A DNA stretch of 64,000 nucleotides from an uncultured Thermoplasmata archaeon (GCA_963768855.1 CAVYJM010000010.1:1-64000), one strand, 5' to 3'. Counted from the stretch's first letter, positions 6,080 through 51,756 are shown. Notes: generated by a model from the sequence alone, not told the origin. Translations and numbers: made by a program.

Positions 6080-6105
6080 AAGTCAACCTTGTTTAAGGTT
6101 GACTT
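6080..6105. promoter_or_regulatory. Palindrome copy 1: AAGTCAACCTT-GTTT-AAGGTTGACTT
   Basis: Perfect 11-bp inverted repeat with a 4-bp spacer, intergenic, upstream of the small-ORF/GNAT/polB2 unit; three more copies in the window. Confidence 0.8.
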
Positions 6106-6172
6106 TTCCGGGACACTTTCGGGGACCTCTCCCGGGCATCCGATGATAGCGGACACAGACCATAGCGAGCGC

Positions 6173-6469
6173 ATGGGCCGCACGATCCCGACGTACCGCC
6201 TCCACCTCGAGTCGATCCTGAACGACTGGATGGACTACCGCCGCGCGCTTCGGGAGAGGGACCGGGAGGTCTTCGACCGTCTCCTGAACAAGGCGAGGCA
6301 GCACGCGAGCGCCGCGAGCTACTCCGCCCACCTGGACCCCACGGACCTCGCGTTCCTGTCCATCCTCCTCGAGATGGAGAAGGAGCTGGAGACCCTGCGG
6401 ACCCGACGCGAACGTTCTTCCGGCCCGGAGGAATCCGCGGCCCGTGAACCTCCGCGAGGCACGGCCTGA
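6173..6469 (+). CDS. Small helical protein of the type encoded next to archaeal PolB2 (arCOG07300-like)
   Basis: 'MGRTIPTYR...W.DYRRALR..DREVFDRLL.KARQHASA...SILLE.EK' resembles, from recall, the PolB2-associated small protein; lies just upstream of polB2. Confidence 0.7.
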   Translation: MGRTIPTYRLHLESILNDWMDYRRALRERDREVFDRLLNKARQHASAASYSAHLDPTDLAFLSILLEMEKELETLRTRRERSSGPEESAAREPPRGTA

Positions 6470-6959
6470 GGACCGTCCGGCGATCGAGCGGATCTCGCGG
6501 GCCTCCTTCGACCGCGTGTACGCGTTCTTCTCGATCCACGGGAGCCGCCAGGGCTGGCCCCAGCTCATCGCCGAGGAGGATGGCGGGGTAGTCGGGTTCC
6601 TCGAAGGGCGCCTCTTCGACGGACGGCCGCCGATCGGCTACGTGTACTTCGTCGCGGTGGACTCGGAGCACCGGAGGCACCACGCGGGACGGTTGCTCGT
6701 GGAGGAGTCCCTGCGGAGATTCGAGTCCCGCGGAGCCACGCGGGTCTTCGCCGCGGTCCCCGATGGCAACGAAGCGTCCATGGGACTTTTCAAGGTCCTC
6801 AGATTCCAGGAAGTCCCGCGGGGCGCAATGTGGCAGTGGTACCGGTGGCGCAGCCTCGCGGTCCAGATGAACATGATGATCGCGCCGCACGAGATCCTGC
6901 TCGCGCGCACTTTCACGGACCCCTCCCCGGCATCGGACCAAGAGCCCCCTCGACCCTGA
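6444..6959 (+). CDS. GNAT-family N-acetyltransferase
   Basis: 'YVYFVAVDSEHRRHHAGRLL' motif A, 'NEASMGLFKVLRF' motif B. Confidence 0.8.
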   Translation: MNLREARPEDRPAIERISRASFDRVYAFFSIHGSRQGWPQLIAEEDGGVVGFLEGRLFDGRPPIGYVYFVAVDSEHRRHHAGRLLVEESLRRFESRGATRVFAAVPDGNEASMGLFKVLRFQEVPRGAMWQWYRWRSLAVQMNMMIAPHEILLARTFTDPSPASDQEPPRP

Positions 6960-6981
6960 AGGAGGGCCCCGGGGGAGTTTC

Positions 6982-9328
6982 ACGCACGGATGGATCATCG
7001 ACGCGTACGCGGACTACGACAAGGACGCGGTGGTCCTCCGGCTCTGGAACGAGCAGGGCGCGCACCGCATCGAGGACCCGCGACTCGTGCCGTCGTTCTT
7101 CCTCCACGCATCGCCGGGCGACCTGCCTTCCCTCCGCCGCCGCATCGAGATCCTTGACGGCGTGCGCGAGATCCGCGAGGTCTCGCGCCGCATCGCCCTC
7201 GAGGACGACGAACCGCGTCCCGTCCTCGAGATCGTGCCGCGGCACTACCGCGACCTGCGAAAACTCTCCCATATCCTCGACTCGAACGGCGGCTATGTGG
7301 ACCACCGTCTCTTCGATGTCGACCTGCGGTTCAGCCAGCGCTACGCAATCGAGCACGATATCTTCCCCATGGGCCTCGTGCGCTACGCGAACGGCACATG
7401 GCGGGCGGAGGAGGAACACTTCGCCCTCGACTATCCGCTGCCGCCTTTGAGGCGGTCTCTCCTCGACCTCCATGTGGACAACCCGGCAGGCATGCCGCGG
7501 ATGCAGGATCGGCTCCTCGGAGCTCGTATGGACGACGTTGAGATCGACGGGAGCGAGGAGGCGATCCTCCGAGGCATCGACGAGACGGTCCGCTCGAAGG
7601 ACCCGGACATCCTGATGACGGATGGTGGAGACGCCTTCGTCATGCCGTACCTCGCGCGGAAGGCCGCGGAACTCGGCGTGAATTTGCAGCTCGGCCGTGA
7701 TGCGGACAAATTCGCGGAGAAGAAAGCGAAGTCCTACTTCACGTACGGGAAGATCGTCTACAAACCCGGGCAATACATCCTGCGCGGACGGCTGCACCTG
7801 GACCGCGGGCACTTCGCGTTCCGGGAGAGTGACTTCGCGGGGCTCGCGGAGCTGTCCCGCCTGTCGACCCTGACACCCCAGGAGCAGGCGCGGCTCACGC
7901 CGGGCACGGCGATCACCGCGATGCAGGTGAACCAGGCACACAAGGACGGTTGCCTCGCGGCCTGGAAGAAGAACCGTCCGGAGGAGTTCAAGAGCGCGGA
8001 GTATCTGCTGCGGGGGGACCGCGGCGGATTCATCTTCGAGCCCGAGGTCGGATTGCACGAGGGACTCTACGAGCTCGATTTCTTCGCGCTGTATCCGAAC
8101 ATCATGGTGAAGTTCAACATCAGCCCAGAGACGCTCGATTGTCCTTGCTGCTCCTCGGACGGGCGTGGCGTTCCCGAGTTGAATTATCATCTTTGCACGC
8201 GACGCGCAGGATTGATTCCTCGTGTCTTGAGGCCCGTGGTCGAGCGGCGGCGTTACTACAAGAAGATGAAGAAGGAGCCGGGCCCGCTACAGGAGGTGTA
8301 TGCGGGCAGGGACACGATCCTGAAGTGGCTCCTAGTGACGTGCTTTCGGTTACACTGGCTACAAAAATGCCCGCTTCGGCCGCATCGAATGCCACGAGGC
8401 CATCAACGCGTACGCGCGCGACGTTCTCGTCCACTCCATGGAAATCGCGGAGTCACACCGCTACGAGGTGGTCCACGGCATCGTCGACTCGCTGTGGCTC
8501 CGCCCCAAACCTGATGCAGACGACATCCGCAAGGTCCAGGACCATATCGCCGGTGCAACAGGTCTCCCCATCGAACTCGAGGGCCGCTACAAGTGGATCG
8601 TCTTCCTCCCCTGCAAAACGACCGGCGTCGGCGCGCTGAACCGCTACTACGGCCTCTACGACCACGATGAGTTCAAGCTCCGCGGCATCGAGCTGCGGAA
8701 ACACGACACGCCGGAGTTCATCAACATCGCCCAAGAGGCGATGCTCGGAGAGCTGAGCCTCGCCTCGAACGCGGCGGAGTTCCACGAGCGCATCCCCCGC
8801 GCCGTGAACGTGCTGCGCTGGACCGCGAAGCGCGTCCTCGACCGCGCGATCCCCGTGCACCAGTTCGTCCTCACGAAGAACGTCTCCCGCACCCTGCCCG
8901 AGTACGTCGTCCTCACGGCGACCGCGGCGGCCCTCAAGCAGATGGAGAAACGCGGCTTCACGGTCGAGCCCGGAGAGACCGTGCGCTACGTCCTCCTCGA
9001 CGTCCGAGCGCGCGAGTCAGAGCGGAAGGTGCGCGTCGCGGAGTTCCTCGATGGAGACGAGAGGCCGGATGCGTGGGAGTACATCCGCCTCCTGTGCCGC
9101 TCGGGGCAGACGCTCCTCGCGCCCTTCGGCATCACGGAGGAGGACCTCTTCGCGAGCTGCAAGGACCTCTCCGACGTCGCGTCGCCGGGGAGTCCGCAGG
9201 AGATCGAGATCAAGGACCCGGGACGCGGGTACGGGCACAGCCGCGCGCGGGGGGGCGTGGGCTACACGCACACGTGGCGCATCGAGGAGGACGAGGCGGA
9301 GCCCGGCGAGATCCCCGAAGAGGGATGA
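6982..9328 (+). CDS. polB2: Family B DNA polymerase, PolB2 (Dpo2-like) group; frameshifted as sequenced (ORFs 7030-8514 and 8438-9328)
   Basis: Motif A 'ELDFFALYPNIM', motif B 'ILKWLLVTCF/GYTGYKNARFG', motif C 'HGIVDS' (PolB2-type), 'RGIELRKHD'; one extra T at 8344-8346 splits the frame; N-terminus 'HGWIIDAY' starts at ACG 6982 behind GGGGGAG. Confidence 0.85.
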
Positions 9329-26380: not shown

Positions 26381-27649
26381 TCAGAAGAGGGTCACGCGGA
26401 CGGTCTCTCCCTTCTCCACGAGGTCGACGTTCGCGGGAATCTCGATGTAGCCGTCCGCATGCGCCATCGACGTGATCGCGCCGCTCTCCTTGTAGGCGGG
26501 AACGGCCACCCCGTCGACGATGCGCACGGTGTGGAACTCGACACGGCCGAGGGCGCTCGTCAACCGCTTCGCGAGCGGCGCCTCGACGACGCGCTCGACG
26601 GCGGGCGGGAGACGGGCCATGCGCCGCAGCATCGGAGCCAGGATGAGGTAGCAGTTGCTCAGGCACGACGTCGGGTAGCCGGGCATTCCGAGGACCGCCT
26701 TGCCCTCGACGCGACCGAGGACGGTCGGCTTGCCCGGCTTGACCGCGACCCCGTGGAACAGGAGGTCTCCCATCTCTCGGAGCACGTCGATGATCATATC
26801 CTTCTCGCCGACGCTGGAACCGCCGCTGAAGACGACGAGATCCTCTCGGACCGCCTTCGCGAGGGCGTCATGGAGAGCGTCGAGGCGGTCTGCGACGCGG
26901 CCCTGGAGGACCGGCTCCCCGCCGTTCTCCCGCACAATCGAGGACATCGTGTTCGCGTTGATGTCGTACACCTGGCCAGGGCGGATTGGATGCCCGGGCG
27001 GCACGACCTCGTCGCCCGTCGTGAGGATTGCGACCCTCGGCCTCGCATAGACGGAGACGCGATCCCGACCGATTGCCGCGAGCGCACCCACCTTCGCCGG
27101 GGTGAGCCATTCGCCCAGCGTGACGACGAGGGAGCCCTTGCGGATGTCCTCTCCCTGGCCTGAGACGTTCTCCCGCGGATGCACGGGGCGGTATACCTTG
27201 ACGACGTCCTTCTCGCGCTCCGTGTCCTCGACCATGACAACCGCGTCCGCTCCGCGAGGCAGGGTCGCACCCGTCGCGACCTCCGTGCACCGTCCCTTCG
27301 TCACGCGCTTCGCCGGCACGCCGTCCGCGTAGACTGTCTCCAGGATTCGGAGGACCATGGGCTTGAACTTCCCCGCGCGGAACGTCTCGCGGGCGACGAC
27401 GGCGTACCCGTCCATCGCCGCGCGGTCTGCCAGGGGCACGTCGATCGGCGAGCGGACGTCCTCCGCGTTCACCCGGCGGAGAGACTCGAGGAGCGGGACC
27501 GTTTCGTGGCGCTCCAGTGGGACGGCGAGGTCCATGCACATCGTGAGCGCCTCGTCGAGGGCGATGAGCGCCTTGAGCGGGCGCATGCCGTGGCCCGGGT
27601 GCTCGCGGTCGTCGTGATCGTGCCCGCGGTGCGCGGTCGCTCGGTTCAT
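26381..27649 (-). CDS. moeA: Molybdopterin molybdotransferase MoeA with His-rich N-terminal extension
   Basis: 'AAMDGYAV', 'TGA.LP.GADAVVMVED', 'TGDEV', 'SGGSSVG', 'VKPGKPT', 'GMPGYPTS'; ATGA overlap with moaB. Confidence 0.92.
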   Translation of the reverse strand: MNRATAHRGHDHDDREHPGHGMRPLKALIALDEALTMCMDLAVPLERHETVPLLESLRRVNAEDVRSPIDVPLADRAAMDGYAVVARETFRAGKFKPMVLRILETVYADGVPAKRVTKGRCTEVATGATLPRGADAVVMVEDTEREKDVVKVYRPVHPRENVSGQGEDIRKGSLVVTLGEWLTPAKVGALAAIGRDRVSVYARPRVAILTTGDEVVPPGHPIRPGQVYDINANTMSSIVRENGGEPVLQGRVADRLDALHDALAKAVREDLVVFSGGSSVGEKDMIIDVLREMGDLLFHGVAVKPGKPTVLGRVEGKAVLGMPGYPTSCLSNCYLILAPMLRRMARLPPAVERVVEAPLAKRLTSALGRVEFHTVRIVDGVAVPAYKESGAITSMAHADGYIEIPANVDLVEKGETVRVTLF

Positions 27650-28146
27650 CGGTTCATCACCCCGACCGCATGCCCGAGCTCCGGGAGAATGAGCTTCTCC
27701 ATCGCGAGGCGGCACGCGTCGGGCGAGCCAGGGAGGCAGAACACGATCCGGCCATGGTACACGCCTGCGGTGGCCCCGGAGAGCCAGGCCGCGCTCCCAA
27801 TCGAGTCATAGGAAAGGCGCCGAAACAGTTCGCCGAAGCCGGGGAGCGTGCGCTCGAACTGCGGGGCCAGCGTCGGAATCGTCACGTCGCGTCGCCCGAG
27901 CCCGGTGCCCCCGTTCGTGATGATTGCCTCGCAGGTCCACGACGCCTGCTCGACTGCATCGGAGATGGCCTTCGGCTCGTCCTTGACGACCACGTAGAAG
28001 AGGACCGCGTGGCCCGCCTTGAGGAGGAGCTCACGGATGAGCCTGCCCGAGTCATCTGTCGCCTCTGTGCGGCTGTCCGAACTCGTGACGATCCCACATT
28101 TCACGGAAGCGGGAGCGTGGTCCTTGTGGTCCTGATGGACGGGCAT
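27646..28146 (-). CDS. moaB: Molybdopterin adenylyltransferase MoaB/MogA
   Basis: 'TSSDSR', 'DDSG', 'TNGGTGLGRRDVT', 'LPGFGELFR', 'CLPGSP'. Confidence 0.9.
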   Translation of the reverse strand: MPVHQDHKDHAPASVKCGIVTSSDSRTEATDDSGRLIRELLLKAGHAVLFYVVVKDEPKAISDAVEQASWTCEAIITNGGTGLGRRDVTIPTLAPQFERTLPGFGELFRRLSYDSIGSAAWLSGATAGVYHGRIVFCLPGSPDACRLAMEKLILPELGHAVGVMNR

Positions 28147-28192
28147 GCGCCAGAGGAGAAGACCAGCCAAGGTCAAAAGGTTCGTCCCGCAG

Positions 28193-28214
28193 GTTAACCT
28201 TATTCAAGGTTGAC
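28193..28214. promoter_or_regulatory. Palindrome copy 2: GTTAACCTT-ATTC-AAGGTTGAC
   Basis: 47 bp upstream of the moaB ATG (minus strand), at the left edge of the more A/T-rich accessory block. Confidence 0.75.
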
Positions 28215-30138: not shown

Positions 30139-30151
30139 TCTTGCGTCACCT

Positions 30152-30295: not shown

Positions 30296-30305
30296 CCATT
30301 CCACC

Positions 30306-30641: not shown

Positions 30642-30661
30642 TTCCAATCACCCCAGTGTCC

Positions 30662-30781
30662 TCACGTCTTCATGATCTGTCGGCCTGCTTTGCGCTTTCG
30701 GACACGACCACGTCCACCCGGGGACTTCGCGGCCCGCCTCTTGGCCGCGGTCATTCTGCCGCCTCGGCTCTTCTTTGCCAT
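30662..30781 (-). CDS. 39-aa highly basic peptide (not in the ORF track)
   Basis: MAKKSRGGRMTAAKRRAAKSPGGRGRVRKRKAGRQIMKT*; GGAGAAGG 8 nt upstream; frame conserved in the diverged duplicate. Confidence 0.55.
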   Translation of the reverse strand: MAKKSRGGRMTAAKRRAAKSPGGRGRVRKRKAGRQIMKT

Positions 30782-30902
30782 GAGTATAACCTTCTCCGAT
30801 ATCCAGAATCGCCACTCCACGGTTGGCCTCCCCCCTCAGGCCTGCGCGGCCCTCGGACAAGTATATTAGGTTCGTGTCCGATTCCCCCAACGGTTCTGGT
30901 TT

Positions 30903-31820
30903 ATGTGGTCACCAGACGACCAAGACATTCGTATCGTCAGGGCGCTGGCTTCGCCCCACTCGTTTCAGTGGGACGTCCGGATTTCCTATGCTAACGTGGC
31001 CAAGGGGCTCGCCCTCGACGAAGAGACAGTCAGGAACCGGCTGAGACGCATGAACGAGGTGGGGTTCCTGCAGGGATGGCAGCTCGTTCTCAACCCGAGC
31101 ATGCTTGGCCGAAAAGCCGCCATGGTGGAGCTGGGGGTCAGCGCCCCGGAATCGAAGACCAGAGCGATTTCACGACTCAGACTCCTGGAGGGCGTGACGC
31201 TCATCGATGACTTCTATGGCAACAAGCTCGCCGTCCAAGTCTTGTACGTGAATGTGGGGACGCTGGAGAGACAGGTTCAACTGATCGCCTCCCTTTGCGA
31301 CTGGCCAACCCCGGTTTGGTGGAAGCTCGGCTTCCCTCCCTGCGATCTGACCCCTACCAGGACGGACTGGCAGATCATCCAAGCCCTGCGACAGAATGCG
31401 AGAGGGAGCCTGTCCGACGTCTCCCGCAGCCTGCGGATCTCTACTCGGACAGTCAAGAGGCACCTGCAACACTTGGTCGAAGGGAATGCGTTCTACCTCG
31501 ATCCCGTCCTGGACTTGGGAAAGGTCGGCGGCGTGCGATGCCGACTCTGGGTCGTCTGCGAAGCGAACAAGAAGGAAGCCGTCGACCAGATGATTCTGTC
31601 CGGACTCCCGAGGATTATCTCGACCCACACCGCGCCGCAGGAGTACTCCCTTTTCGTCGTCCACTGCTCCAACGCGTCGGAGGTGCAGGAGATCTCGCAG
31701 TGGGCGGGGAAGCTGGAGGGCGTCAAGGAAGTCCGATCGAACATCGACGTGGAACATATCCACATTCAGGAATGGCTTGACGAGGAAATTGAGAAACGGT
31801 CGTCGACGCCGGCCTCCTAG
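30903..31820 (+). CDS. Lrp/AsnC-family regulator with two tandem HTH-plus-effector modules
   Basis: HTH1 'ISYANVAKGLALDEETVRNRLRRM', HTH2 'SLSDVSRSLRISTRTVKRHLQHL'. Confidence 0.8.
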   Translation: MWSPDDQDIRIVRALASPHSFQWDVRISYANVAKGLALDEETVRNRLRRMNEVGFLQGWQLVLNPSMLGRKAAMVELGVSAPESKTRAISRLRLLEGVTLIDDFYGNKLAVQVLYVNVGTLERQVQLIASLCDWPTPVWWKLGFPPCDLTPTRTDWQIIQALRQNARGSLSDVSRSLRISTRTVKRHLQHLVEGNAFYLDPVLDLGKVGGVRCRLWVVCEANKKEAVDQMILSGLPRIISTHTAPQEYSLFVVHCSNASEVQEISQWAGKLEGVKEVRSNIDVEHIHIQEWLDEEIEKRSSTPAS

Positions 31821-31919
31821 CCTGCACACGCCTCCACTAGGAAGACCGGCGGACCGCTCTTGACGGAGAGTCTCCCGCAGGTTGGGGGAGACCAGGAAGC
31901 GCGTTGCGCGCGTCCGCCA

Positions 31920-32264
31920 TTACTGGAGGACCGGATCGCGGCAATCCCTTCTGCGTCCAGGCCTGGAAGGCAGGGGACGACCAGCGCAAGGAAGACCATC
32001 ACGCCGAGCGGCGACCGATGCGATTAGGAGACGAGATCGACAAACGATCCATTGCGTGCCGCCAGGAGGCGCCGCCCCAGCGGTGCTCTCACTTGTCGCG
32101 TTGTCGACGAGCTCGCAGATGAATCGCGACACGGAAACGCCGTGGAGAGCGGCCTCCGCCCTCCACTCCCCGAACATGTCGGAGGTCGGGAAGTAGACCG
32201 TCACGGTCCTCTGTTCGGTCGTATGCGTTTTTCCCCGCTTGGAGCTTGCCGGGCCTTTCTTCAT
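31920..32264 (-). CDS. Ribbon-helix-helix-like protein, possibly degenerate at the C-terminus
   Basis: 'RTVTVYFP...MFGEWRAEAALHGVSVSRFICELVD' fits a beta-alpha-alpha pattern. Confidence 0.45.
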   Translation of the reverse strand: MKKGPASSKRGKTHTTEQRTVTVYFPTSDMFGEWRAEAALHGVSVSRFICELVDNATSESTAGAAPPGGTQWIVCRSRLLIASVAARRDGLPCAGRPLPSRPGRRRDCRDPVLQ

Positions 32265-32303
32265 GTGTATCGGTATTTAGAGCGCTTCACTCATACCACT
32301 TGT

Positions 32304-33770
32304 ATGGCCTTGGTGGACGTCTGGAACTTCATACTGGGCGACCCTCTGAAGATTTTCCTCTGGATTAACGCGGCCCTCATCATCATCACCATCATCTTCA
32401 TAAAACCCAGGAAGGTGACCTCGGTCTATCTCTGGATCGCTGCCTTCCTGGTCCTGCCTGTGGTCTTCGTTCTGATCTTCTACCTCTTCTTCGGCCGTGA
32501 CTATCATCACCGCCAGGTCTTCAGGAACAAGGGAGTAAGCGATGTCCAGGTGGTGGAGCTGCTCCGGCAGCAGCGGAAGACGCTGGCCTTCTCCAGTGAC
32601 ACCTACGAGAACACGCTGCACGAGAACATGTGGCTGGCGAAGATGCTGCTCAACACGAACCGCAGCTTCGTGACCTCGGACAACGAGGTGCGCTACATCA
32701 ACGACGGCAACGAGTTCTTCGAGACCATGTTCGCGCAGATTCGCAGCGCGAAGCACTTCATTCACCTCGAGATGTATATCGTGCGCGACGACGAGCTCGG
32801 CAGAAGACTGGCGCATGAGCTCGCCCTGAAGGCCAAGGAGGGCGTAGAGGTCAAGCTGCTGGTGGACGCGGTGGGCTCGCACAAGCTGCCCCGCAAGTTC
32901 TTCCAGGAACTGCGGGATGCGGGAGGCAAGACGGCCGAGTTCTTCCCCTCCTGGATCCGGGCCGTCAACACCCGCTTCAACAACCGCAACCACCGCAAGC
33001 TGATGATCGTGGATGGCGAGGAGGGCTTCTGCAGCGGCTTCAACGTCGGCATCGAGTATATCGGCCGAGGCCCGCTGGGCCCGTGGCGGGACGACGCGGT
33101 CTTCCTCAGGGGCGGGTCGACCATCGCGCTGGAGGCGCGTTTCATCCAAGACTGGAACTTCGCGGCCAAGGACAATACCACAATCACGCCGTATCTGCCC
33201 GATGGCCCGGGCCCCGGCAAGAGCCAAGTGCAAATCGTCTCCGGAGGGCCGGACACGGAGTACAGCCCCATCAATCATCACTATCTGAAGATGATCACCT
33301 CCGCCACGAAGAAGGTCTACATCCAGACGCCCTACTTCGTTCCAGAAGACCCCATCGCCACCGCCCTGCGAATGGCGGCCGAGTCGGGGGTCGAGGTGAA
33401 GCTCATGATCCCCAGCAAGCCGGACCATCCCTTCGTGTTCTGGGCCACGACCTACAACGCAGGCGAACTGCTGAGGTCGGGAGTGCATGTCTACAAGTTC
33501 CGACCCGGGTTCATCCATGCTAAGATCTGCATGATCGATGACCAGGTCGCCAGCGTGGGGAGCGCCAACTTCGATGTGAGGAGCTTCGAGCTTAACTTCG
33601 AGACCAACGCCGTCATCTACGATGCCGATGTCGCGGCCGCCATTCGTGACAAGTTCCTTGACGATGTCGCCAACCGCAGCGACGAGCTGACCAAGGAATC
33701 GTACGCCCAGCGCGGGAATTGGGTCAAGTTCAAGGAGGCCATCGCGCGCCTCTACACCCCCATCGCCTGA
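32304..33770 (+). CDS. cls: Cardiolipin synthase (phospholipase D family, bacterial ClsA type)
   Basis: Two N-terminal TMs; two HKD motifs 'NHRKLMIVDG' and 'HAKICMIDD'; 'GSANFDVRSFELNFE'. Confidence 0.9.
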   Translation: MALVDVWNFILGDPLKIFLWINAALIIITIIFIKPRKVTSVYLWIAAFLVLPVVFVLIFYLFFGRDYHHRQVFRNKGVSDVQVVELLRQQRKTLAFSSDTYENTLHENMWLAKMLLNTNRSFVTSDNEVRYINDGNEFFETMFAQIRSAKHFIHLEMYIVRDDELGRRLAHELALKAKEGVEVKLLVDAVGSHKLPRKFFQELRDAGGKTAEFFPSWIRAVNTRFNNRNHRKLMIVDGEEGFCSGFNVGIEYIGRGPLGPWRDDAVFLRGGSTIALEARFIQDWNFAAKDNTTITPYLPDGPGPGKSQVQIVSGGPDTEYSPINHHYLKMITSATKKVYIQTPYFVPEDPIATALRMAAESGVEVKLMIPSKPDHPFVFWATTYNAGELLRSGVHVYKFRPGFIHAKICMIDDQVASVGSANFDVRSFELNFETNAVIYDADVAAAIRDKFLDDVANRSDELTKESYAQRGNWVKFKEAIARLYTPIA

Positions 33771-34670
33771 TCACTTAGGCTTTTCCTGGTTCAGCTCGTT
33801 CCGCACCCGGCGGAGGTAGTGCTTGAACCGCGGGGCGTTTTGCTGGTAGTTTATGGCCATGGCGGGCAGGAAGTAGCGGCTGTGCTTGGCCACCATCACC
33901 ATGCCCGTGGCCAGCTTCTGCAGCGGCCCCTTCTCGCAGCCTATGACCACGTTCCGGCGGGCCGCAATCGCGTCCAAGAAGCCCTCCAACGTCGTCTCGT
34001 GAGCGCAGGTGACGACGCCCCCCACGTCCGAGAGCATGTGTCCGTCCGTGCCGCCGGTGAAGGCCATCTTCCTTTCATGCGCCAGCCGCATCGCCTTGAC
34101 GTTCAGCGAGTGCGTCATGCCGCCGGATATCACCTCCAGGCCATCGAAGCGCCTCACGGTCTCCGGCGACAGGTACTTCGCGCCAATGCTCTTCAGCAGA
34201 CCCTTGTTGAAGATCAGATAGCCATAGGGGTGCGCCGCGATCGTGACGCAGTTGTACTCCTCGGCGCGGTCGACAATCTCCTGCGTGCCTAGCTTGATGG
34301 CCAGCCAAGGGCTGCCCTGCCGGTTCGGCTCGATGTGGCGCCTGAAATAGTCCTCCAGGTCGCGAGGCGAATAGAAGTAGGTGAGGATATGGGGGCCGTC
34401 GAAGGCGCTGACCTCCATGCCCGGGACTACCAGCAGGTCCCCCCGGTCCCTGAAGGCTTGCAGAGATCCGGAGATGACGTTGTGATCGGTGATGGCCACC
34501 CCGAAGTCGCGCATGCGGGCTTTCGCCAGCACATCGTGCACCCGGGCATGGCCGTCCGAGTGGTCTGTGTGGAAGTGCATGTCGACGGCCGATAGGCCTT
34601 CCGTCTCCAGCTGTACCATGTCGGGGATCTCGAAACGGACCGGCCCGCTGCTGTGGTCTGAGCGCGGCAT
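33771..34670 (-). CDS. PHP-domain phosphoesterase
   Basis: 'DMHFHTDHSDG', 'AITDHN', 'PGMEV', 'IAAHPY', 'GGTDGH'. Confidence 0.85.
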   Translation of the reverse strand: MPRSDHSSGPVRFEIPDMVQLETEGLSAVDMHFHTDHSDGHARVHDVLAKARMRDFGVAITDHNVISGSLQAFRDRGDLLVVPGMEVSAFDGPHILTYFYSPRDLEDYFRRHIEPNRQGSPWLAIKLGTQEIVDRAEEYNCVTIAAHPYGYLIFNKGLLKSIGAKYLSPETVRRFDGLEVISGGMTHSLNVKAMRLAHERKMAFTGGTDGHMLSDVGGVVTCAHETTLEGFLDAIAARRNVVIGCEKGPLQKLATGMVMVAKHSRYFLPAMAINYQQNAPRFKHYLRRVRNELNQEKPK

Positions 34671-34939
34671 CTAGTCCTCGGCCAAGATAGCGACGGGTGG
34701 GGTTAGAAGCTATGCGCCAACCTAGCACCAAATAGGCGCTCAGGATCGCATTTCGCCGGTGAGGAACGAATGCGTCTTCACCCCTCCTGCCGGTTCGCTT
34801 CCATCGATGAATCGATGTTGCTCGGGCTGGTCGCTGGGTTCTTCATCAGCATCGGTTTCGTCTCTCCGACAGCCAAGGCATGGAAGGCAGGGATCGCCGT
34901 CCGAGGGAAGAGCGTCGCGCCGGGCGGTGACGGAACCGA

Positions 34940-36565
34940 TTAGGAGGCAAGGCCGACGAACGATCCAACGCGTTCCGCTACGGCGGGATCGTCGAGGGCG
35001 GCGGCGAATTCGACCAGGGTCGCAAACGGTCGGCGCCGCACGATGCGCGCCGCGCGCTTGGCCCCGACGCCGGGCAGGGCCTCAAGGGCCCTCAACGAGG
35101 CGCGATTCACGTCAAGCGGGAACTCCACGCCGGTCACGGACCGCTCGCCGTGGCTCGTGATCTTCACGTCCACGAACCGAGTGACGTCGAGATCATAGGG
35201 CAAGCCGACGAGGATTGGATAAGTTCCGATCTGGCGCCCGTACGTCACGTGGCCGTGTCGAATCTCGAGATACACGTCTCGCAGAACGGTTCCTTCGGGG
35301 AGGACGCGGCGGAGCATTTCATGGTCGACGCCTGCCCGCACAGATTCCTTGAAACGCCGGAACTCGGAATGCAGCCCCGTGGGCTCGAATTCCTGGCGTA
35401 CGGGACGAACCTGGCGGATGTTGATCCGCCGAACCCAGAGGTCCTCCTCGAGGAGATGCTTCAGAAAGGCGAGATTCAGATCGAAGGTCTTCTTCGTTTC
35501 GCCCGTCAAACCCGTGACGAAGTTGAGACCAGGTAGGAGCTGCGGCAGGCCGTTTTCCCCACGCTCCCGGCCCACGGCGTTGACCATGCGGATGGCCTGA
35601 AGACATCCGTCCGCGTCGATGTTGAGGTTGTTCGCCTCCGTGACCGCGGGATCCGCGGACTCGAGGCCGAAGGAGAGAAGGTTGCCCGGGGACGTGTACC
35701 GCACCAGGAGGCGGAGAGCCGCCGTGGCCTCGTCCGGATGGGCGACCATCATCGCAGGGTCGCCGTTGTCCGTGTGGAGGATCCGCAGCCGCGGCGCGGC
35801 CTCGTGGATCCCGCGGAGGAGGGCCTCAAGCGCCGGGACGTTGACCTGCGGCGTCGGAGAGCCGCCGAGGCCGATCGCCTGGTAGCTGAAGAAGTCCGCC
35901 TGGCCTCCGAGGCGGAAATTGACCGCGCCGAGGGACGCGAGCTTCCGGACCTCCGCAAGGATCCCGTCCAGCGGGCGGAACTTCGTGATCCCGTACTGAG
36001 GCTCGACACAGAAGCTGCAGCCGCCGTTCACGTAGCGCACGCAGCCCTTCGTGGTGTCGATCTCGACGATGAGCGGTTCCGGGAAGTCAGGATGCCGGGC
36101 GATGACGTCCGCGCCGAGGAGGGCCCAACGGTCCCACTCCGCCATCGTGCGGTCGCGGTCCTCCCACTCGCCCTTCGTCAGGTGGTCGTACACGCAGACA
36201 TCGAGGTCGCGGACCGCCACATGGTCGAACGGCTCGACGAGGGCGTCGTCGAAGAAGCGGAACCGGGCCAGGGGACCGCCGAACACGCTCGGGCCCTTGA
36301 AGGCGGTTGCGTGACGGAGGATCTCCTTCTCGCTGATGGGCAGGCTCCGGAGGTACTTGCCCGGGACGATCGGCCCGGAGATGATCGCGAGGAGGTCGCC
36401 GTGGAGCGGGTGACCGGCGCGCGCCCGGTCGATCGTGACATACTCCCATTCATGGCCCGCATCCGCCACGGCGCCTGCGAGGTACCGCGGGTACGGGGAA
36501 ATGAAGGGCGGCACGCCGAAGTTGGACGGCTCGTCGACGTAGCCGTCCAGGATCACGACCTTCAT
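34940..36565 (-). CDS. Archaeal radical SAM protein with C-terminal TRAM-like and helix-hairpin-helix regions
   Basis: 'LDGYVDEP..FGVPP', 'GCVRYVNGGCSFC' (Cx7Cx2C), 'SFGLESAD', 'LEALPGVGAKRA'. Confidence 0.8.
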   Translation of the reverse strand: MKVVILDGYVDEPSNFGVPPFISPYPRYLAGAVADAGHEWEYVTIDRARAGHPLHGDLLAIISGPIVPGKYLRSLPISEKEILRHATAFKGPSVFGGPLARFRFFDDALVEPFDHVAVRDLDVCVYDHLTKGEWEDRDRTMAEWDRWALLGADVIARHPDFPEPLIVEIDTTKGCVRYVNGGCSFCVEPQYGITKFRPLDGILAEVRKLASLGAVNFRLGGQADFFSYQAIGLGGSPTPQVNVPALEALLRGIHEAAPRLRILHTDNGDPAMMVAHPDEATAALRLLVRYTSPGNLLSFGLESADPAVTEANNLNIDADGCLQAIRMVNAVGRERGENGLPQLLPGLNFVTGLTGETKKTFDLNLAFLKHLLEEDLWVRRINIRQVRPVRQEFEPTGLHSEFRRFKESVRAGVDHEMLRRVLPEGTVLRDVYLEIRHGHVTYGRQIGTYPILVGLPYDLDVTRFVDVKITSHGERSVTGVEFPLDVNRASLRALEALPGVGAKRAARIVRRRPFATLVEFAAALDDPAVAERVGSFVGLAS

Positions 36566-37751: not shown

Positions 37752-38234
37752 ATGGGAAACCTGAGAAGAATCGTGGGCGTGGGCCTGGCCGTCGCCTTGG
37801 TGGCGACGCTCGCAGTCTACGTGCTCATCCCCAAGACGGGGACCACCGCGAACAACGTGGTGGTCAATGAGCCGCAGAGCCCAACGAGCGGCGGCACGAC
37901 CAGCACGACGACCGGTGGTCACGGCCACGGCGGCCATGCCGGCGGATCGGGCACGACCCCGACACCGTCGACCCCGCCGACGAGGCCGCCGAAAGCCCAT
38001 GGGCAGAACAGCAACGGGCCCAAGCACGTGATCTGCCTGCCCGTGAAGGACCACTCGGGCAACGGGGTCTCGGAGTACCAGGGCGCGAACCAGTACCGCG
38101 GACAGTGCGCGGCTGGGTCGGCGCTCGGCGCCCAAGGCCACGGACACCAGGCAACGGCCTCGACCGGGGATGTCGCATCGGCGCAGGCGCTCTTCCGCGC
38201 ACACGCCAAGAACGGCAGCCACGGGAGCAACTGA
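37752..38234 (+). CDS. Membrane-anchored or secreted Gly/Thr/His-rich protein
   Basis: N-terminal hydrophobic helix, low-complexity T/G/H/P tracts; GAAGGA RBS. Confidence 0.55.
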   Translation: MGNLRRIVGVGLAVALVATLAVYVLIPKTGTTANNVVVNEPQSPTSGGTTSTTTGGHGHGGHAGGSGTTPTPSTPPTRPPKAHGQNSNGPKHVICLPVKDHSGNGVSEYQGANQYRGQCAAGSALGAQGHGHQATASTGDVASAQALFRAHAKNGSHGSN

Positions 38235-38300
38235 ACCTGCTTCCCCCTCCGGGGGTGCGGCCTGGGGCCGATGCGGCCCCGGGCGCCGATTTCTGGCCTG

Positions 38301-38690
38301 CTAGCGCGAACGCCGTTTCGGATGCGGCGGCTCTGACTTCCAGATGGGTACGATCCGTTTGACCTCGTCCATCGCCCAGGCGCACGCATCGAAGGCCTCG
38401 CGGCGGTGCGCCGCCGAGCAGGCGATCGCCACGGAGTCCCCGCCGACCGGGACGCGGCCGACGCGGTGCATGATGGACATGTCTAGGACGTGGAACTTGG
38501 ACCGCGCCCGGTCGACGAGCTCCGCGAAGACCTTCTGGGCCATGGGCCCATAGGCCTCGTAGTCCAGGGCGGCCACGCCGGAATCCGCGCGGACGGAGCC
38601 GAGGAACAGGACGATCGCGCCCGCGTCCTCGCGGCGGACGCTCGCCACGACCGCCCCGACGTCGATCCGGCGTCGGGTGATCTCGATCAT
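38301..38690 (-). CDS. moaE: Molybdopterin synthase catalytic subunit
   Basis: 'GAIVLFLGSVR', 'LDYEAY..MA', 'HRVG....G..SV.IA....HR.EAF', 'K..VPIWK'. Confidence 0.92.
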   Translation of the reverse strand: MIEITRRRIDVGAVVASVRREDAGAIVLFLGSVRADSGVAALDYEAYGPMAQKVFAELVDRARSKFHVLDMSIMHRVGRVPVGGDSVAIACSAAHRREAFDACAWAMDEVKRIVPIWKSEPPHPKRRSR

Positions 38691-38938
38691 CGCGCGCCTC
38701 CGCTCACCGGGGGGAGCAGGGCGACCTCATCGTCCTCGTGCAGGACCTGGGACGGATCTGCGAGGGCCTGGTTGACCGCGAGCATCATCGTGCCGCGATG
38801 CGGGGCGAGACGCGGATGGCGTCTCAGGAAGACGTCGAGGAACTCGCCGAGCGTGGCCCCCGGATCCGCCGTCCACACGACGTCCTTCGCGCCGACGATC
38901 TCGCGGTACGTGGCGAAGAGCTTGACGCGGAAACGCAT
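38687..38938 (-). CDS. moaD: MoaD/ThiS ubiquitin-like sulfur carrier ending in GG-AR
   Basis: 'VKLFATYREIVG', 'AVNQ', 'L.EDDEVALLPPVSGG' then AR*; stop overlaps the moaE ATG. Confidence 0.85.
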   Translation of the reverse strand: MRFRVKLFATYREIVGAKDVVWTADPGATLGEFLDVFLRRHPRLAPHRGTMMLAVNQALADPSQVLHEDDEVALLPPVSGGAR

Positions 38939-38979
38939 CGGGGCGGCCGATGCCGGGGCCGCCATTTGGGGTTTGCGCC

Positions 38980-39216
38980 TCAGAATGGCGGGAGCTTCGC
39001 GAGCAGGGCCGCCCGCCGCTCCCGCAGCTCGACCGCCACCCGGTCGAAGTAGGCCGCGACCGCGGCCTCGAGCCTCGGCCGGGCGGAGGCGGAGCGGGGG
39101 GAGCCAATGTACTGAAAGACCTGGACCCGACGCCCCGCGCGCTCCTCGTACCGCCAGAAGTAGAGGTAGGGGCGTCCCCGGATCACCTTGACCGTGAGAC
39201 CGCAACCGACCTGCAT
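38980..39216 (-). CDS. 78-aa protein with a three-stranded beta-sheet DNA-binding-like motif
   Basis: 'LTVKVIRGRPYLYFWRYEERAGRRVQVFQYIG' followed by a helix; palindrome copy 3 lies 15 bp upstream. Confidence 0.6.
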   Translation of the reverse strand: MQVGCGLTVKVIRGRPYLYFWRYEERAGRRVQVFQYIGSPRSASARPRLEAAVAAYFDRVAVELRERRAALLAKLPPF

Positions 39217-39230
39217 CGCGCGTGGAACGA

Positions 39231-39252
39231 TGCAACCTTACTTAAGGTTAAC
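39231..39252. promoter_or_regulatory. Palindrome copy 3: TGCAACCTT-ACTT-AAGGTTAAC
   Basis: Between the divergent 78-aa ORF and hflX; overlaps TATA-like CTTAAGTA on the minus strand. Confidence 0.75.
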
Positions 39253-39344
39253 TCGGCCGGACTCCCGCGAATGGGCGTCATGGACCCCCACCCCACCATT
39301 TCCTGTGGAAACGCTTATCGGATGGCCCTCCCTTCGACGGAACG

Positions 39345-40595
39345 TTGGACGTCCTCCTGGTCTCCCTCACGGACGACACGAATGAGATCGCGGCCCTCAT
39401 CGATTCAGCGGGGCACCGCATCGTCGAGCGCATCGTCCAACGCCGGGACCACCCAGACCCGCAGACTTTCGTCGGGCGGGGCAAGCTGGAGGAGGTCCGG
39501 GAGCGGGTCGAGCGAGGCGACATCGTCCTCGTCGTGTTCAACGGCGAGCTCCGGCCCACGATGCACTATCACCTGGAGCAGGAACTCGGCGTCGAGTGCT
39601 ACGACCGGCTCCGCGTGCTCCTCGAGCTGTTCGCGCAGCGCGCGGCGACCCGGGAGGCGAAGCTCCAGGTCGAGCTCGCCCTCCTCCACTACGAGGTCCC
39701 GCTCCTCCGGGAATGGATCCACGAGGCGGACATCGGCGAACGCCCGGGCTTCATGGCCGGCGGCGAACTCCGCGTCGACGCGTACTACGAGACCGTGAAG
39801 CGTCGCCTGAAGAAGATCAAGGACGAGCTCGAGACGATCCGACGGGAGCGCGACGTCCGACGCCAGCTGCGGAAGGAACGCGGGTATCACCTCGTCGCCC
39901 TGGCCGGGTACGCGAACGCGGGGAAGTCGTCCCTTCTGAACGCGCTGGCGAAGGAGCACGTCGTCGTCGATTCCCGGATGTTCTCGACCCTCTCCACGAC
40001 GACCCGCACCCTGCCCGGCCCCCACCGGCGCATCCTTCTGACGGATACGATCGGGTTCGTGGACGGAGTCCCCTTCTGGATGATCGAGGCGTTCAACGCC
40101 ACGCTGGAGGAGATCTTCCAGGCCGATCTCATCCTCCTCCTCGTCGACGCGTTCGATCCGGTCGAGGAGATCCGCCGGAAAGTGCGTCTGGCGGCCCGGA
40201 CGCTGCTCCCCAAGGTCCGGGTCGAGGCGATCCTGCCCGTCCTGGCGAAGGTGGACCTCCTCCCCGCGGACGCCGTCGCGGCGAAGGCCCGCGTCCTAGC
40301 CGAATCCGAGTTCCACCAACCGCCCCTGCGCCTCTCCGCCCGCACGGGAGAGGGACTCGAGGATCTGCGCCGTGTGATCCAAGACCTGTTCGCTTATCCG
40401 GTCGAGATCCATCTGCTGCTCCCCCTGGACCCGGAAAGCGAGGCGAAGCTCCACTGGCTCCACGAGCGCACGGACGTCGTGTCCGTCGTCCACGCGCCGG
40501 ATCGGATCGAAGCGGTCGTCCGCTGCCGGCCCCAGGACGAGGCCGCCGTGCAGGAACTCGGCCGGGTCGTGCTGCGACGGGATCTCAGCTCTTGA
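39345..40595 (+). CDS. hflX: GTPase HflX
   Basis: 'F.GRGKLEE', 'EAKLQVELA', G1 'GYANAGKSS', 'FSTL.TTTR', 'DTIGF'. Confidence 0.92.
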   Translation: MDVLLVSLTDDTNEIAALIDSAGHRIVERIVQRRDHPDPQTFVGRGKLEEVRERVERGDIVLVVFNGELRPTMHYHLEQELGVECYDRLRVLLELFAQRAATREAKLQVELALLHYEVPLLREWIHEADIGERPGFMAGGELRVDAYYETVKRRLKKIKDELETIRRERDVRRQLRKERGYHLVALAGYANAGKSSLLNALAKEHVVVDSRMFSTLSTTTRTLPGPHRRILLTDTIGFVDGVPFWMIEAFNATLEEIFQADLILLLVDAFDPVEEIRRKVRLAARTLLPKVRVEAILPVLAKVDLLPADAVAAKARVLAESEFHQPPLRLSARTGEGLEDLRRVIQDLFAYPVEIHLLLPLDPESEAKLHWLHERTDVVSVVHAPDRIEAVVRCRPQDEAAVQELGRVVLRRDLSS

Positions 40596-40962
40596 TGCGG
40601 AACTCCTTCCGCTTCGCTTGATACCTCTTCTCGTAGGAGGAGGGGAGGTGGTAGTACGCGAGTTCCTCGATCCGCTTCTGATTCTTCACGAAAATCTCCT
40701 TCGACGTCGTCGTCACGAGACGGTCGAACTCCCGCTCCTTGCGGATCGTGTCGATGAAGTAGTACCCCCCGGCCAGGAGTGCGAGGAATCCGAGGAAGGC
40801 CACCCAGATCATCCAGTTCCCGATCCCGTTGTTGATGCTCTTCAGCCAGTCCGGGGTCTGGTTCGGGATGAGCCAGTAGGTGATGGAGAGGATCATGCTG
40901 AGGATGCCGAGCCCGAAGACGAGCGTGCTCAACTCGTAGCGGAAGTCTCTCAGGGAGACCAT
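40585..40962 (-). CDS. Small two-TM membrane protein
   Basis: Two hydrophobic helices plus basic C-terminus; TATA-like GCTTATG upstream. Confidence 0.6.
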   Translation of the reverse strand: MVSLRDFRYELSTLVFGLGILSMILSITYWLIPNQTPDWLKSINNGIGNWMIWVAFLGFLALLAGGYYFIDTIRKEREFDRLVTTTSKEIFVKNQKRIEELAYYHLPSSYEKRYQAKRKEFRIKS

Positions 40963-41051
40963 GCGCCGCGGGCTATGGGTGCGACGGTCATAAGCTTTGC
41001 TCGCAGCAGCCCAAGGTTCAACCTCCGAGTCTGCATCTCCTCCCTCATCCC

Positions 41052-48503: not shown

Positions 48504-48515
48504 GCGCGAAAACCC

Positions 48516-49433: not shown

Positions 49434-49437
49434 TCGC

Positions 49438-50468: not shown

Positions 50469-50870
50469 ATGGTCCAGCCGCCCCCGCAGCCGTACTGGCC
50501 TCCCGCGCGGCCGCTCGCCTGGCAGTCCCCCGGGGCGATTATCGGGATCGTGCTCGCTGCGGTCTTCGGGATCTTCTTCCTGCTCTTCGTCGTCTCGGGG
50601 TTCGGGATGAGCGGATTCCCCGGGGTCATGTTCGCACCATTCTGCGCGATCTTCCTAATCATCGTCGTCGTCATCGTACTCGCGGCGTCCCAAGGCCTGA
50701 GGCGGGCCCCGATTCCCCCGCCGCCCCCAATCCAGCAGCCCATGGTCCCCGCGGGCCAGATGGGCCCAGTCGCCCTGAACTGCCCCAACTGCGGCGCGCC
50801 CCCGCAGAACGTGGACCGGTTCGGAGTCGCGACCTGCACGTACTGCAACGCGCGCTTCCTCGTGCGGTGA
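50469..50870 (+). CDS. Pro-rich two-TM protein with C-terminal zinc ribbon
   Basis: 'CPNCGAP...ATCTYCN'; 6 bp upstream of the arrestin-like gene. Confidence 0.65.
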   Translation: MVQPPPQPYWPPARPLAWQSPGAIIGIVLAAVFGIFFLLFVVSGFGMSGFPGVMFAPFCAIFLIIVVVIVLAASQGLRRAPIPPPPPIQQPMVPAGQMGPVALNCPNCGAPPQNVDRFGVATCTYCNARFLVR

Positions 50871-50876
50871 GGGTCC

Positions 50877-51701
50877 GTGCCGCGGTTCATCTCCGTGGAG
50901 CTCGCCCGGAACACCTACTACACGGGCGACGTCCTCGAGGGGACCGTGGTCCTCGAGACGACGAAGGAGACCCCGAGCCGCGGGCTCTACGTCGACTTCA
51001 CCGGCAAGGAGGAAACGCAGATCACGCGGAGCAGCGGCAAGCAGAGCGTGACCTACCGATCCGAGGCGGCGCTCGTGAGCTGGCGCCTCCCGCTCCAGGG
51101 CGAGGCGACGATCGCCCCGGGCGCCTACCGGTTCCCGTTCAAGTTCCAGGTGCCCCTCCAGGGACTGCCTTCCTATCAGGGTCGCCACGCGGTCGTGAAG
51201 TACATCCTGAGCGCGCGGCTCGACGTACCCCTGTGGCTCGACACGGTCTGGAGCAACGAGGTCTTCGTGTTCTACGACCGGCCGAGCGTCCGCACGTTCT
51301 CCGAGCCCGCGCGGTTCCGTTCCGGCGGGGATGGTCCCGAGGTCTACGTCGAGCTGGACGGGGACCGGTTCTTCGCGCGCGAGATGATCGGCTGCCGGAT
51401 CACCCTGCTCCGGGCAGGGGACCAGCGGATCCGGCGCCTGTACGCGCGCCTCATCGGCGCCGAGTTCGCCCAGGCCCAGAGCCAGCACGAGGAGACGACG
51501 ACCTTCCGCACCGAGGTCGATGTGCCCGCAGAACAGATCAAGCTCGGGGTCCCGTTCACGTTCGAGATCCCGATCCCCGGCAACGTGCAGTCGGCCTATC
51601 GCGGGACGTACTCGTACTACAGCTACATGCTCCAGATCGGCCTCGACATCGCCTGGGGGTTCGACTTGGTCGCCCAGACCCCCATCGTCATCGTCCGCTG
51701 A
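50877..51701 (+). CDS. Arrestin-fold (Spo0M/alpha-arrestin-like) two-domain protein
   Basis: 'YYTGDVLEGTV.L...K....RGLYV.FTG.EET', 'PG.YRFPF.F.VP...LPSY.G....VKY.L.A.LD.P'. Confidence 0.7.
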   Translation: MPRFISVELARNTYYTGDVLEGTVVLETTKETPSRGLYVDFTGKEETQITRSSGKQSVTYRSEAALVSWRLPLQGEATIAPGAYRFPFKFQVPLQGLPSYQGRHAVVKYILSARLDVPLWLDTVWSNEVFVFYDRPSVRTFSEPARFRSGGDGPEVYVELDGDRFFAREMIGCRITLLRAGDQRIRRLYARLIGAEFAQAQSQHEETTTFRTEVDVPAEQIKLGVPFTFEIPIPGNVQSAYRGTYSYYSYMLQIGLDIAWGFDLVAQTPIVIVR

Positions 51702-51733
51702 GCGACCGGGGCGCGGCCGCATCGTCTGATGCG

Positions 51734-51756
51734 AGTCAACCTTGTTTAAGGTTGCA
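51734..51756. promoter_or_regulatory. Palindrome copy 4: AGTCAACCTT-GTTT-AAGGTTGCA
   Basis: 21 bp identical to copy 1 (6081-6101); 52 bp upstream of the pterin dehydratase ATG. Confidence 0.78.

Follow-up and report, generated by a model that had tools for sequence, protein, structure and literature searches.

The DNA studied here is a stretch of 64 kb (C10:1-64000, referred to below as the window) from contig C10 of the genome of an uncultured Thermoplasmata archaeon (GCA_963768855.1, CAVYJM010000010.1). A short palindrome, AACCTT-N4-AAGGTT, occurs in it four times, and one of the copies lies in front of an open reading frame (ORF) for a 78-residue protein that heads a unit with moaD and moaE (Table 1). 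The initial annotation of the window had taken the palindrome as the candidate operator of an undescribed regulon that links the DNA polymerase PolB2 with genes for the molybdenum cofactor (Moco) and pterins, under an unknown repressor. The genome (G000) is archaeal and comprises 2.87 Mb in 24 contigs with 65.9% GC; a crude gene caller gave 2,694 genes and a coding fraction of about 87%. Window positions 38000-41000 were present in DNA runs labelled wetland, freshwater-sediment or sediment metagenomes, and no RNA runs containing them were listed.

Table 1. Palindrome copies, promoter-like boxes and genes in the window.
Feature	Position	Strand	Remarks
Palindrome copy 1	6082..6103		exact core 6085-6100; GTCAACCTT-gttt-AAGGTTGAC; 40 bp upstream of the 108-aa ORF/GNAT/PolB-like unit
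Palindrome copy 2	28193..28214		exact core 28196-28211; centre ~57 bp upstream of moaB-moeA
Palindrome copy 3, proposed auto-operator	39231..39252		exact core 39234-39249; centre 25-26 bp upstream of the 78-aa ORF start
Palindrome copy 4	51735..51756		exact core 51738-51753; centre ~62 bp upstream of PCD
moaB core BRE/TATA-like box GAACCTTTTGACC	28171..28183	-	between palindrome and start codon
PCD core promoter-like box AGCCTTTTGCC	51770..51780	+	~18 bp after the palindrome
78-aa ORF (P0002), candidate regulator	38980..39216	-	first gene of the unit with moaD-moaE
moaD	38687-38938	-	Pfam ThiS 1.8e-16; downstream of the 78-aa ORF
moaE	38301-38690	-	Pfam MoaE 9.1e-36; downstream of the 78-aa ORF
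moaB	27646-28146	-	moaB-moeA pair: Pfam MoCF_biosynth, MoeA_N, MoeA_C
moeA	26381-27649	-	moaB-moeA pair (26381..28146): NCBIfam molyb_syn domain model above cut-off
Pterin-4a-carbinolamine dehydratase (PCD)	51808..52095	+	Pfam Pterin_4a 2.7e-32; NCBIfam NF002017 107 bits, cut-off 80
108-aa ORF	6143-6469	+	first gene of unit 6143..8514
GNAT acetyltransferase	6444-6959	+	second gene of unit 6143..8514
Short B-family polymerase-like gene, 494 aa	7030-8514	+	family B models match only below cut-offs; candidate PolB2-like gene
hflX GTPase	39345..40595	+	divergent from the 78-aa ORF; own conserved promoter box GGAAACGCTTATCGG at 39307-39321

A motif scan recovered the four 22-bp copies reported in the initial annotation, and none of 100 dinucleotide shuffles of the window, which set the chance level, yielded the pattern. 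The palindrome edges of copies 1-4 lie 40, 47, 15 and 52 bp from the nearest start codon, in agreement with the intergenic placement 15-70 bp upstream of starts that had been described. Also as described, copies 1 and 4 have a 21-mer in common, and the eight half-sites fall into three variants (GTCAACCTT four times, GTTAACCTT twice and TGCAACCTT twice). The genome-wide scan proposed in the same annotation gave 12 exact copies in G000, against about 0.02 expected from base composition, and no copy with one mismatch. Among 29 matches with two mismatches only that at C6:577051 looks related, and it is counted here as a variant thirteenth site. With a symmetrised 30-bp matrix scored in bits, the 13 sites scored 33-48 bits and nothing fell between 12 and 33 bits, so that the motif has no degenerate tail. 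The spacer is strictly 4 bp, as other spacings in a G000 scan of N0-N12 gave 0-1 matches each, and everted or direct arrangements of the arms were absent from G000.

Two sites had at first been placed inside genes, but the ORFs concerned had been called too long or fused, so that an intergenic position holds for all 13 sites, in a genome of which about 87% is coding. They lie on contigs C6, C10 and C11; eight of the 13 are 28-59 nt 3' of the stop codon of a gene, and four are between divergent starts. The extended consensus of 22-26 bp reads (G)T(C/T)AACCTT-N4-AAGGTT(G/A)A(C). The spacer is mostly GTTT or AAAC, and its orientation flips between orthologues independently of gene direction, which fits symmetric recognition of DNA and does not fit an RNA element. 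Among the full-text matches listed for the two hexamers in archaea, only unrelated ones were found. G000 has a second intergenic palindrome family with a similar overall layout, TTACTAT-N4-ATAGTAA, with six copies (C3:2464, C5:13790, C15:1846, C6:865706, C18:25236 and C18:27995).

The relation of the palindrome to the general promoter was analysed in 1,255 upstream regions of G000. AACCTT is 6.7-fold enriched in these regions, in contexts that include AACCTTTAT and AACCTTTAAGG, and peaks 30-50 bp before start codons; thus, the half-site is part of the consensus for the transcription factor B recognition element (BRE) and TATA box of G000. This general promoter consensus is approximately (A/G)AACCTTTA(T/A), 30-50 bp before start codons, a position which suggests that many G000 mRNAs are leaderless or have short leaders. 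Most of the target genes have a second conserved core box 12-50 bp downstream of the palindrome, such as GAACCTTTTGACC for moaB, AGCCTTTTGCC for PCD, GAACGGTTTATGG for a creatininase-family gene and GAAACCTACTTACG for an aldehyde dehydrogenase gene. The moaB core box matches the genome-wide consensus and is conserved in three relatives with the palindrome (G003, G013 and G045) and also in one without it (G001), and the CCTTTTG box of PCD is conserved in the orthologue alignment, genomes without the palindrome included. At the main targets the palindrome is centred 57-65 bp before the start codon. It lies about three helical turns upstream of the core TATA at moaB, PCD, the enoyl-CoA hydratase gene, the 96-aa ORF and the 108-aa ORF, and further from the core box at the creatininase-family gene, the dehydrogenase gene and the aldehyde dehydrogenase gene. 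Only copy 3 of the window copies is at the TATA position, and the others are upstream of separate core boxes, which does not agree with the simple TATA-covering repressor considered in the initial annotation. That annotation had also named a symmetric bidirectional BRE-TATA promoter as an alternative, and had regarded identity to the genome-wide consensus at hundreds of promoters as speaking against an operator. AACCTT does occur in the consensus, but the palindrome is discrete, has only 13 copies and is mostly followed by a separate core box, and it differs from the generic BRE/TATA promoter.

Among 24 sampled genomes of the genus, 23 carry the palindrome in 1-16 copies each, and the reversed pattern, used as a control, occurs in none; the palindrome is also found in some other families of the order. 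When the sites of four relatives were placed by blastx against the G000 proteins, they fell in matching intergenic regions, and G013 has 12 of its 13 sites in common with G000. Footprinting at orthologous promoters, as the initial annotation had suggested, was carried out with 30 other genomes of the genus per query, and the denominators below are the orthologous upstream regions long enough to judge. A site was required to be exact or to have one mismatch for moaB, the creatininase-family gene, the dehydrogenase gene and the PolB-like unit, and to be exact for the enoyl-CoA hydratase gene; one position per arm was free to vary for PCD, and some of the sites counted for the 78-aa ORF have 1-2 arm changes. 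The sites proved conserved: 19/19 for the unit of the 78-aa ORF, moaD and moaE, 25/27 for PCD, 24/28 for moaB-moeA (centred at -57 to -64), 20/21 for the creatininase-family gene divergent from dph6 and 17/20 for the enoyl-CoA hydratase gene. The values were 11/25 for an isopropylmalate/isocitrate-type dehydrogenase gene and 6/25 for the unit of the 108-aa ORF, the GNAT gene and the PolB-like (PolB2) gene.

In the alignment of PCD upstream regions the mean conservation is 0.89 in the arms and 0.45-0.51 in the flanks, and orthologous sites hold their distance of 57-65 bp to the start codon between species that have a protein identity of only 64-90%. The palindrome therefore behaves as an operator, a discrete element in cis that is kept at orthologous promoters as the flanks diverge. 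From the conserved targets assessed, the core of the regulon consists of the Moco/pterin genes plus two or three other units, and the dehydrogenase gene and the PolB2-like unit are probably lineage-specific additions. Orthologous positions, the sharing of sites with G013 and the lack of a degenerate tail also suggest that the AACCTT palindrome is not mobile in the genus. Of the regulon first proposed, the operator with a Moco/pterin core (moaB-moeA, moaD-moaE and PCD) stands, but the link to PolB2 does not hold beyond a minority of genomes. The SOS-like reading offered with it is without basis, since no other repair gene is a conserved target. A coherent SOS/repair regulon was rejected: repair genes stand beside the sites only in the case of the PolB-like unit and, solely in G013, of nreA, which has a site after it.

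The genes beside the 13 sites are mixed. In addition to moaB-moeA, the 78-aa ORF with moaD-moaE, and PCD, the neighbours are dph6 divergent from the creatininase-family gene and rpiA, an enoyl-CoA hydratase gene, a LeuB-like dehydrogenase gene, genes for an aldehyde dehydrogenase, an amidohydrolase and MscS, gatD divergent from the 96-aa ORF, a Cys-rich ORF followed by an ABC transporter, and the 108-aa ORF/GNAT/PolB-like unit. One site adjoins a gene for a stand-alone AsnC ligand-binding domain. A complete Moco regulon was rejected, as moaC (in the window) has no site of its own, moaA (elsewhere in G000) has no site, and a ThiS-ThiF-rhodanese (MoeB/UbaA-like) gene carries one in G003 and G045 only. 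No specific name, such as the archaeal riboflavin-pathway deformylase, could be assigned to the creatininase-family target, for which NCBIfam gave only matches below cut-off.

In the genomes checked, 17-19 bp separate the start codon of the 78-aa ORF from the edge of the palindrome, and in 19 orthologues of this protein (P0002) the palindrome is centred at about -25, 24-26 bp before the start. For a leaderless mRNA, about 25 bp before the start codon is the position of the TATA box. The spacer of this site, read toward the 78-aa ORF, is AAGT, AAAT or GAAT and never GTTT or AAAC, suggesting that the site doubles as the TATA box of the 78-aa gene. The ORF is syntenic beside moaD and hflX in the genomes examined. 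All of its homologues come from Thermoplasmata metagenomes and are proteins without a name; when 1.84 billion representatives were searched with a profile, only 129 clusters were recovered, and Pfam and NCBIfam models had no match to the protein. It thus appears to belong to an undescribed, Thermoplasmata-restricted family without a model in Pfam or NCBIfam. A relation to DUF6788 (PF20586) was tried and rejected: the leads from the ESM Atlas were weak (feature score 0.85, shape TM 0.48), and a genome-wide search with the model gave a single weak match (14 bits), located elsewhere, and left all six paralogues unmatched.

P0002 has five paralogues in G000, each with its own distinct palindrome adjacent. 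We gathered 75 members of the family from some 20 genomes; they form about 13 subfamilies, which share an invariant signature GCG...Y-Y-W-E...Y-G, and each has its own palindrome of the form GTTAnnnnT-wwww-AnnnnTAAC beside the gene. The half-site tracks the residues after the invariant Gly-Cys-Gly (GCG), in the first beta-strand (Table 2). The pairing of the TxK type with AACCTT extends to two further families of the order (G026 and G036).

Table 2. Residues following the invariant GCG in family members and the half-site beside their genes.
Residues after GCG	Half-site
xT(T/V)KxIR	(G)TTAACCTT
QIVKTIKK	GTTAACCAT
ARVRDF	(C/T)ATACCTCT
LRV(R/H)RID	CTACCTCT
xYxHxV(R/H)	GTTAT(A/G)GTT
YC(E/V)K	GTTATCGTT
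FV(E/Q)KTV	GTTATCGCA
FRIK	TTACCCTT
LRVMRVK	GTTATCCTT
LA(V/A)(R/K)	GTTACCACC
LATK(I/V)VH	GTTATACCT
LEVRRVN	TTGTGGAT

The family and the palindrome were also lost together. G001, a member of the genus whose genome is 89% complete, has no copy of the motif and no member of the family. Its moaB and PCD upstream regions have kept their core boxes and have no palindrome, and between its hflX and moaD genes, in an interval containing a 10-N gap, there is no 78-aa ORF. This interval (L159:961-1252) has a duplicated stretch of about 90 bp flanking the gap, so the assembly is uncertain there, and no 78-aa ORF fits. No 78-aa orthologue was found in four other genomes (G004, G016, G017 and G021), in whose assemblies moaE was not found either; in G014, moaE is about 140 bp from the contig end, so that moaD and the 78-aa ORF would fall beyond it. 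In the assessable genomes, gene presence and site presence agree with no exception.

An AlphaFold2 model of the 78-aa protein, built from a 19-sequence alignment (pLDDT 93.6), has three antiparallel strands (residues 5-12, 15-26 and 29-38) and one long helix (45-73), and the sequence has 14 Arg/Lys and 6 Asp/Glu. Foldseek found nothing in the PDB at E <= 0.001 with this model. A VIA search of the PDB returned a Plasmodium AP2 tandem repeat (6sy0, Z 5.3) and an integrase arm domain (3jtz, Z 3.9), both below the noise mark of the tool, and in a shape search of the ESM Atlas the nearest clusters outside the family were integrase Arm DNA-binding domains (Arm-DNA-bind_5, TM 0.57-0.60). The modelled three-stranded sheet with a helix, like that of integrase arm and AP2 domains, would be compatible with sheet-mediated DNA binding, and each member of the family would have such a sheet with a single long helix after it. 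A dimer prediction with two copies of the protein scored 0.41 against a mark of 0.42, which counts neither for nor against binding.

Taken together, we consider it probable that the 22-26 bp palindrome is the site of a homodimeric regulator, with the 78-residue protein as its most likely identity. That the motif is discrete, conserved and of fixed geometry, and that subfamily and palindrome covary, is observed; from this we infer that the protein forms a dimer and physically binds the site, as well as the sign of the regulation and its signal. The 78-aa protein is suggested as the binder by its adjacency to the site, by the covariation of paralogue and palindrome and by co-loss, and the unknown repressor of the initial annotation can now be replaced by this specific candidate, encoded behind copy 3. 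A dimer of the protein would bind the palindrome. At its own promoter the bound dimer would compete with the TATA-binding protein (TBP) and transcription factor B (TFB), and the site over the TATA position suggests autorepression. The conserved targets in the genus would be its own moaD-moaE unit, moaB-moeA, PCD, the creatininase-family/rpiA unit divergent from dph6 and the enoyl-CoA hydratase gene. At the approximately 12 other sites, 57-65 bp before the start codon, the dimer would sit mostly just upstream of a separate core promoter as an activator or modulator. Positions upstream of the core promoter are the usual place for archaeal activators. A regulator that heads the moaD-moaE unit may respond to a cue related to the cofactor or to the sulfur carrier. 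More broadly, we put at about even chances the idea that an archaeal family of DNA-binding proteins of about 80 residues reads palindromes through its first beta-strand with a code for each subfamily, some members being mobile cassettes and one having been domesticated for a regulon centred on Moco and pterins.

A different, conventional regulator of the Lrp/AsnC, TrmB or ArsR type could bind the operator, with the 78-aa ORF as merely one regulated gene. Arms of 6-9 bp around an A/T-rich centre of 4 bp are a common target shape of helix-turn-helix dimers, and the palindrome has this shape with half-site centres 10 bp apart; moreover, an AsnC ligand-binding-domain gene stands beside one site, and the match of the 78-aa protein to DNA-binding folds is weak. 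However, no such regulator gene consistently adjoins the sites in five genomes, a third party would not explain a distinct palindrome in the matching place at every paralogue, and in G001 the loss of the ORF family went along with that of every site, so we regard this as unlikely. A reading of the palindrome by TBP and TFB as a symmetric BRE-TATA-BRE element, which would act as a strong bidirectional promoter or as a decoy for basal factors without any dedicated regulator, would account for the enrichment and peak of AACCTT before start codons, the exact TATA position of copy 3 and the A/T-rich spacers. Yet there are only 13 copies and no degenerate relatives, the conserved core box that stands separately downstream at most targets persists in G001 without the palindrome, two sites lie between convergent genes, and the palindromes of the paralogues (ATACCTCT, GTTATCGTT and TTGTGGAT) are unlike the generic consensus but occupy the equivalent position; we find this explanation quite improbable.

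The palindrome might also belong to a selfish element that travels with the small gene and has no role in host control, such as an element like repetitive extragenic palindromes (REP) or miniature inverted-repeat transposable elements (MITE), a plasmid-type iteron or centromere, or a recombination site. Several features of the family have this character: subfamilies with a palindrome at the start and stop of the gene, near-identical ARVRDF copies within G011, tandem repeats with the palindrome in three or more places of G036, different palindrome types at one position (C12:~32.8 kb) in G000 and G013, and a fold that resembles integrase arm-binding domains. It is nevertheless very improbable for the AACCTT sites, which occupy orthologous promoters at a fixed 57-65 bp across divergent species, with the 78-aa ORF syntenic with moaD and hflX and no integrase or transposase gene among the annotated flanking genes. 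The tyrosine-recombinase site that the initial annotation had considered likewise finds no place here, as the spacer is 4 bp, no integrase is among the flanking genes checked, and positions and synteny are stable across species; cores of tyrosine-recombinase sites have 6-8 bp between the arms. An RNA hairpin, either a terminator of the upstream gene or a structure in the 5' untranslated region, is the reading to which we give almost no weight. Copy 1 does fold stably (-21 kcal/mol, z -4.6) and the eight sites 28-59 nt after a stop codon are placed as terminators could be, but the three remaining window copies do not exceed shuffled sequences in folding stability (z -0.4 to -2.1), and no T-run follows the stem. 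The arm sequence is invariant without compensatory changes, and the outer flank bases differ between the arms without pairing. Furthermore, the loop orientation flips between orthologues, four sites are between divergent starts, most sites are upstream of the core promoter and so outside the downstream mRNA, and no Rfam family, the Moco riboswitch included, matched at gathering score anywhere in the window.

Several observations weigh against the 78-aa protein as a dedicated regulator of host genes. The target genes are functionally mixed and moaA has no site; AACCTT is also in the generic consensus, so TBP and TFB could contribute to the conservation of the arms; the likeness of the 78-aa fold to known DNA-binding folds is below the noise marks of the tools; and cases of covariation among kin are not independent of one another. 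Two sites, C6:269726 and the variant C6:577051, are between convergent genes, where a promoter is not expected. The site at C6:269726 lies after the stop codon of the paralogue P0004 and after dph2, and the site after P0004 is present in G000, G013, G014 and G016, which hints at cross-talk between paralogues or at a roadblock role. In several subfamilies, which look mobile, a palindrome marks the start as well as the stop of the gene; near-identical copies occur inside one genome (the ARVRDF type is multi-copy in G011), and the AACCTT palindrome of G036 is inside 58-bp tandem repeats. These start-and-stop palindromes, the multi-copy ARVRDF type and the G036 repeats suggest that the family may have a mobile or plasmid-like origin, with the regulon as a later domestication, and the ancestral role of the family may not be the regulation of host genes.

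Two ARVRDF paralogues in G000, L079 (C6:490034-490314) and L080 (C17:81082-81358), are bracketed by TACCTCT-N4-AGAGGTA, one copy overlapping the ATG and one overlapping the stop codon, and solo copies of the TACCTCT type occur at C11:119621, C12:32809 and C17:54867. An ARVRDF gene with its palindromes looks like a mobile cassette of gene plus site. Just 3' of an nreA-like gene, G000 has an ACCTCT-type palindrome (L083, C12:~32809) and G013 has one of the AACCTT type (L071). In G036, which belongs to another family of the order, the 58-bp unit is repeated two to three times in tandem at three or more loci (L165, L171, L176 and L113); two arrays are at contig ends and one is directly upstream of a family member, an arrangement that resembles an iteron or centromere-type array. 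In G026 and G037, AACCTT sites flank other genes.

The proposed system resembles several known ones in part. FL11, Ss-LrpB and Ptr2 are autoregulated archaeal repressor/activators with palindromic operators at or just upstream of the BRE/TATA. These Lrp-family factors are alike in the palindrome with an A/T-rich centre, the site over the own TATA box and further sites upstream of core promoters; in contrast, the 78-residue protein is predicted as a sheet with one helix, has neither a helix-turn-helix nor a ligand-binding domain, and matches no Pfam or NCBIfam model. The integrase arm-type and AP2/ERF domains share with it the order of secondary-structure elements and are its nearest shapes outside the family, and the subfamily-variable residues on the first strand would fit a read-out of DNA by the sheet. 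Unlike these domains, the 78-aa protein is a stand-alone protein without a recombinase, has no sequence match to them and scores in the noise range, and the sites of its family are palindromes rather than direct arm repeats.

ModE is the molybdate-responsive control of Moco genes, and the Moco riboswitch is bacterial. Both have Moco genes as targets, as does the conserved core here (moaB-moeA and moaD-moaE). However, Pfam detected no ModE-like domain, Rfam had no match in the window, moaA has no site, and the target set also includes PCD, the creatininase-family/rpiA unit, dph6 and the enoyl-CoA hydratase gene. REP/REPIN repeats are similarly short, near-identical intergenic palindromes, of which there are about a dozen copies here, but the sites described here keep stable orthologous positions at a fixed distance to start codons, and no Y1 (RAYT-type) tyrosine transposase is among the annotated flanking genes, the only genes covered as no genome-wide search was made.

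Most of what is known about gene regulation in archaea comes from a small number of helix-turn-helix families of cultured species. To these the present analysis would add a regulon that is conserved in an uncultured lineage of wetlands and soils and was reconstructed solely from sequence, and a specific candidate regulator from a protein family without annotation. The approximately 13 natural pairs of protein and operator could reveal how a minimal beta-sheet domain reads DNA, and the regulon may offer a first handle on the control of Moco and pterin genes in archaea without the known bacterial systems.

Some further features of the surrounding DNA were observed. Upstream of hflX (39286-39321), a C-rich run CCCCCACCCC is followed by TTTCC-n-GGAAACGCTTATCGG; this arrangement is kept in G003, G013 and G041, and the region likely includes the hflX core promoter. 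In G003, G013 and G045 the moaB palindrome is directly 3' of a radical-SAM/HhH gene, without an insert of about 6.5 kb (window 28400-34940) that in G000 stands between this gene (34940-36565) and the palindrome; the insert contains an M50-like gene and genes for a double AsnC-type HTH protein, a PLD-family enzyme and a PHP phosphoesterase. Upstream of the site at C6:651127, a TPR-like gene (L004:2898-3585; C6:650397-651084) seems to change frame, its N-terminal part being in the frame of 2898 and its C-terminal part in the frame of 3142-3585, which may be a frameshift or an assembly error.

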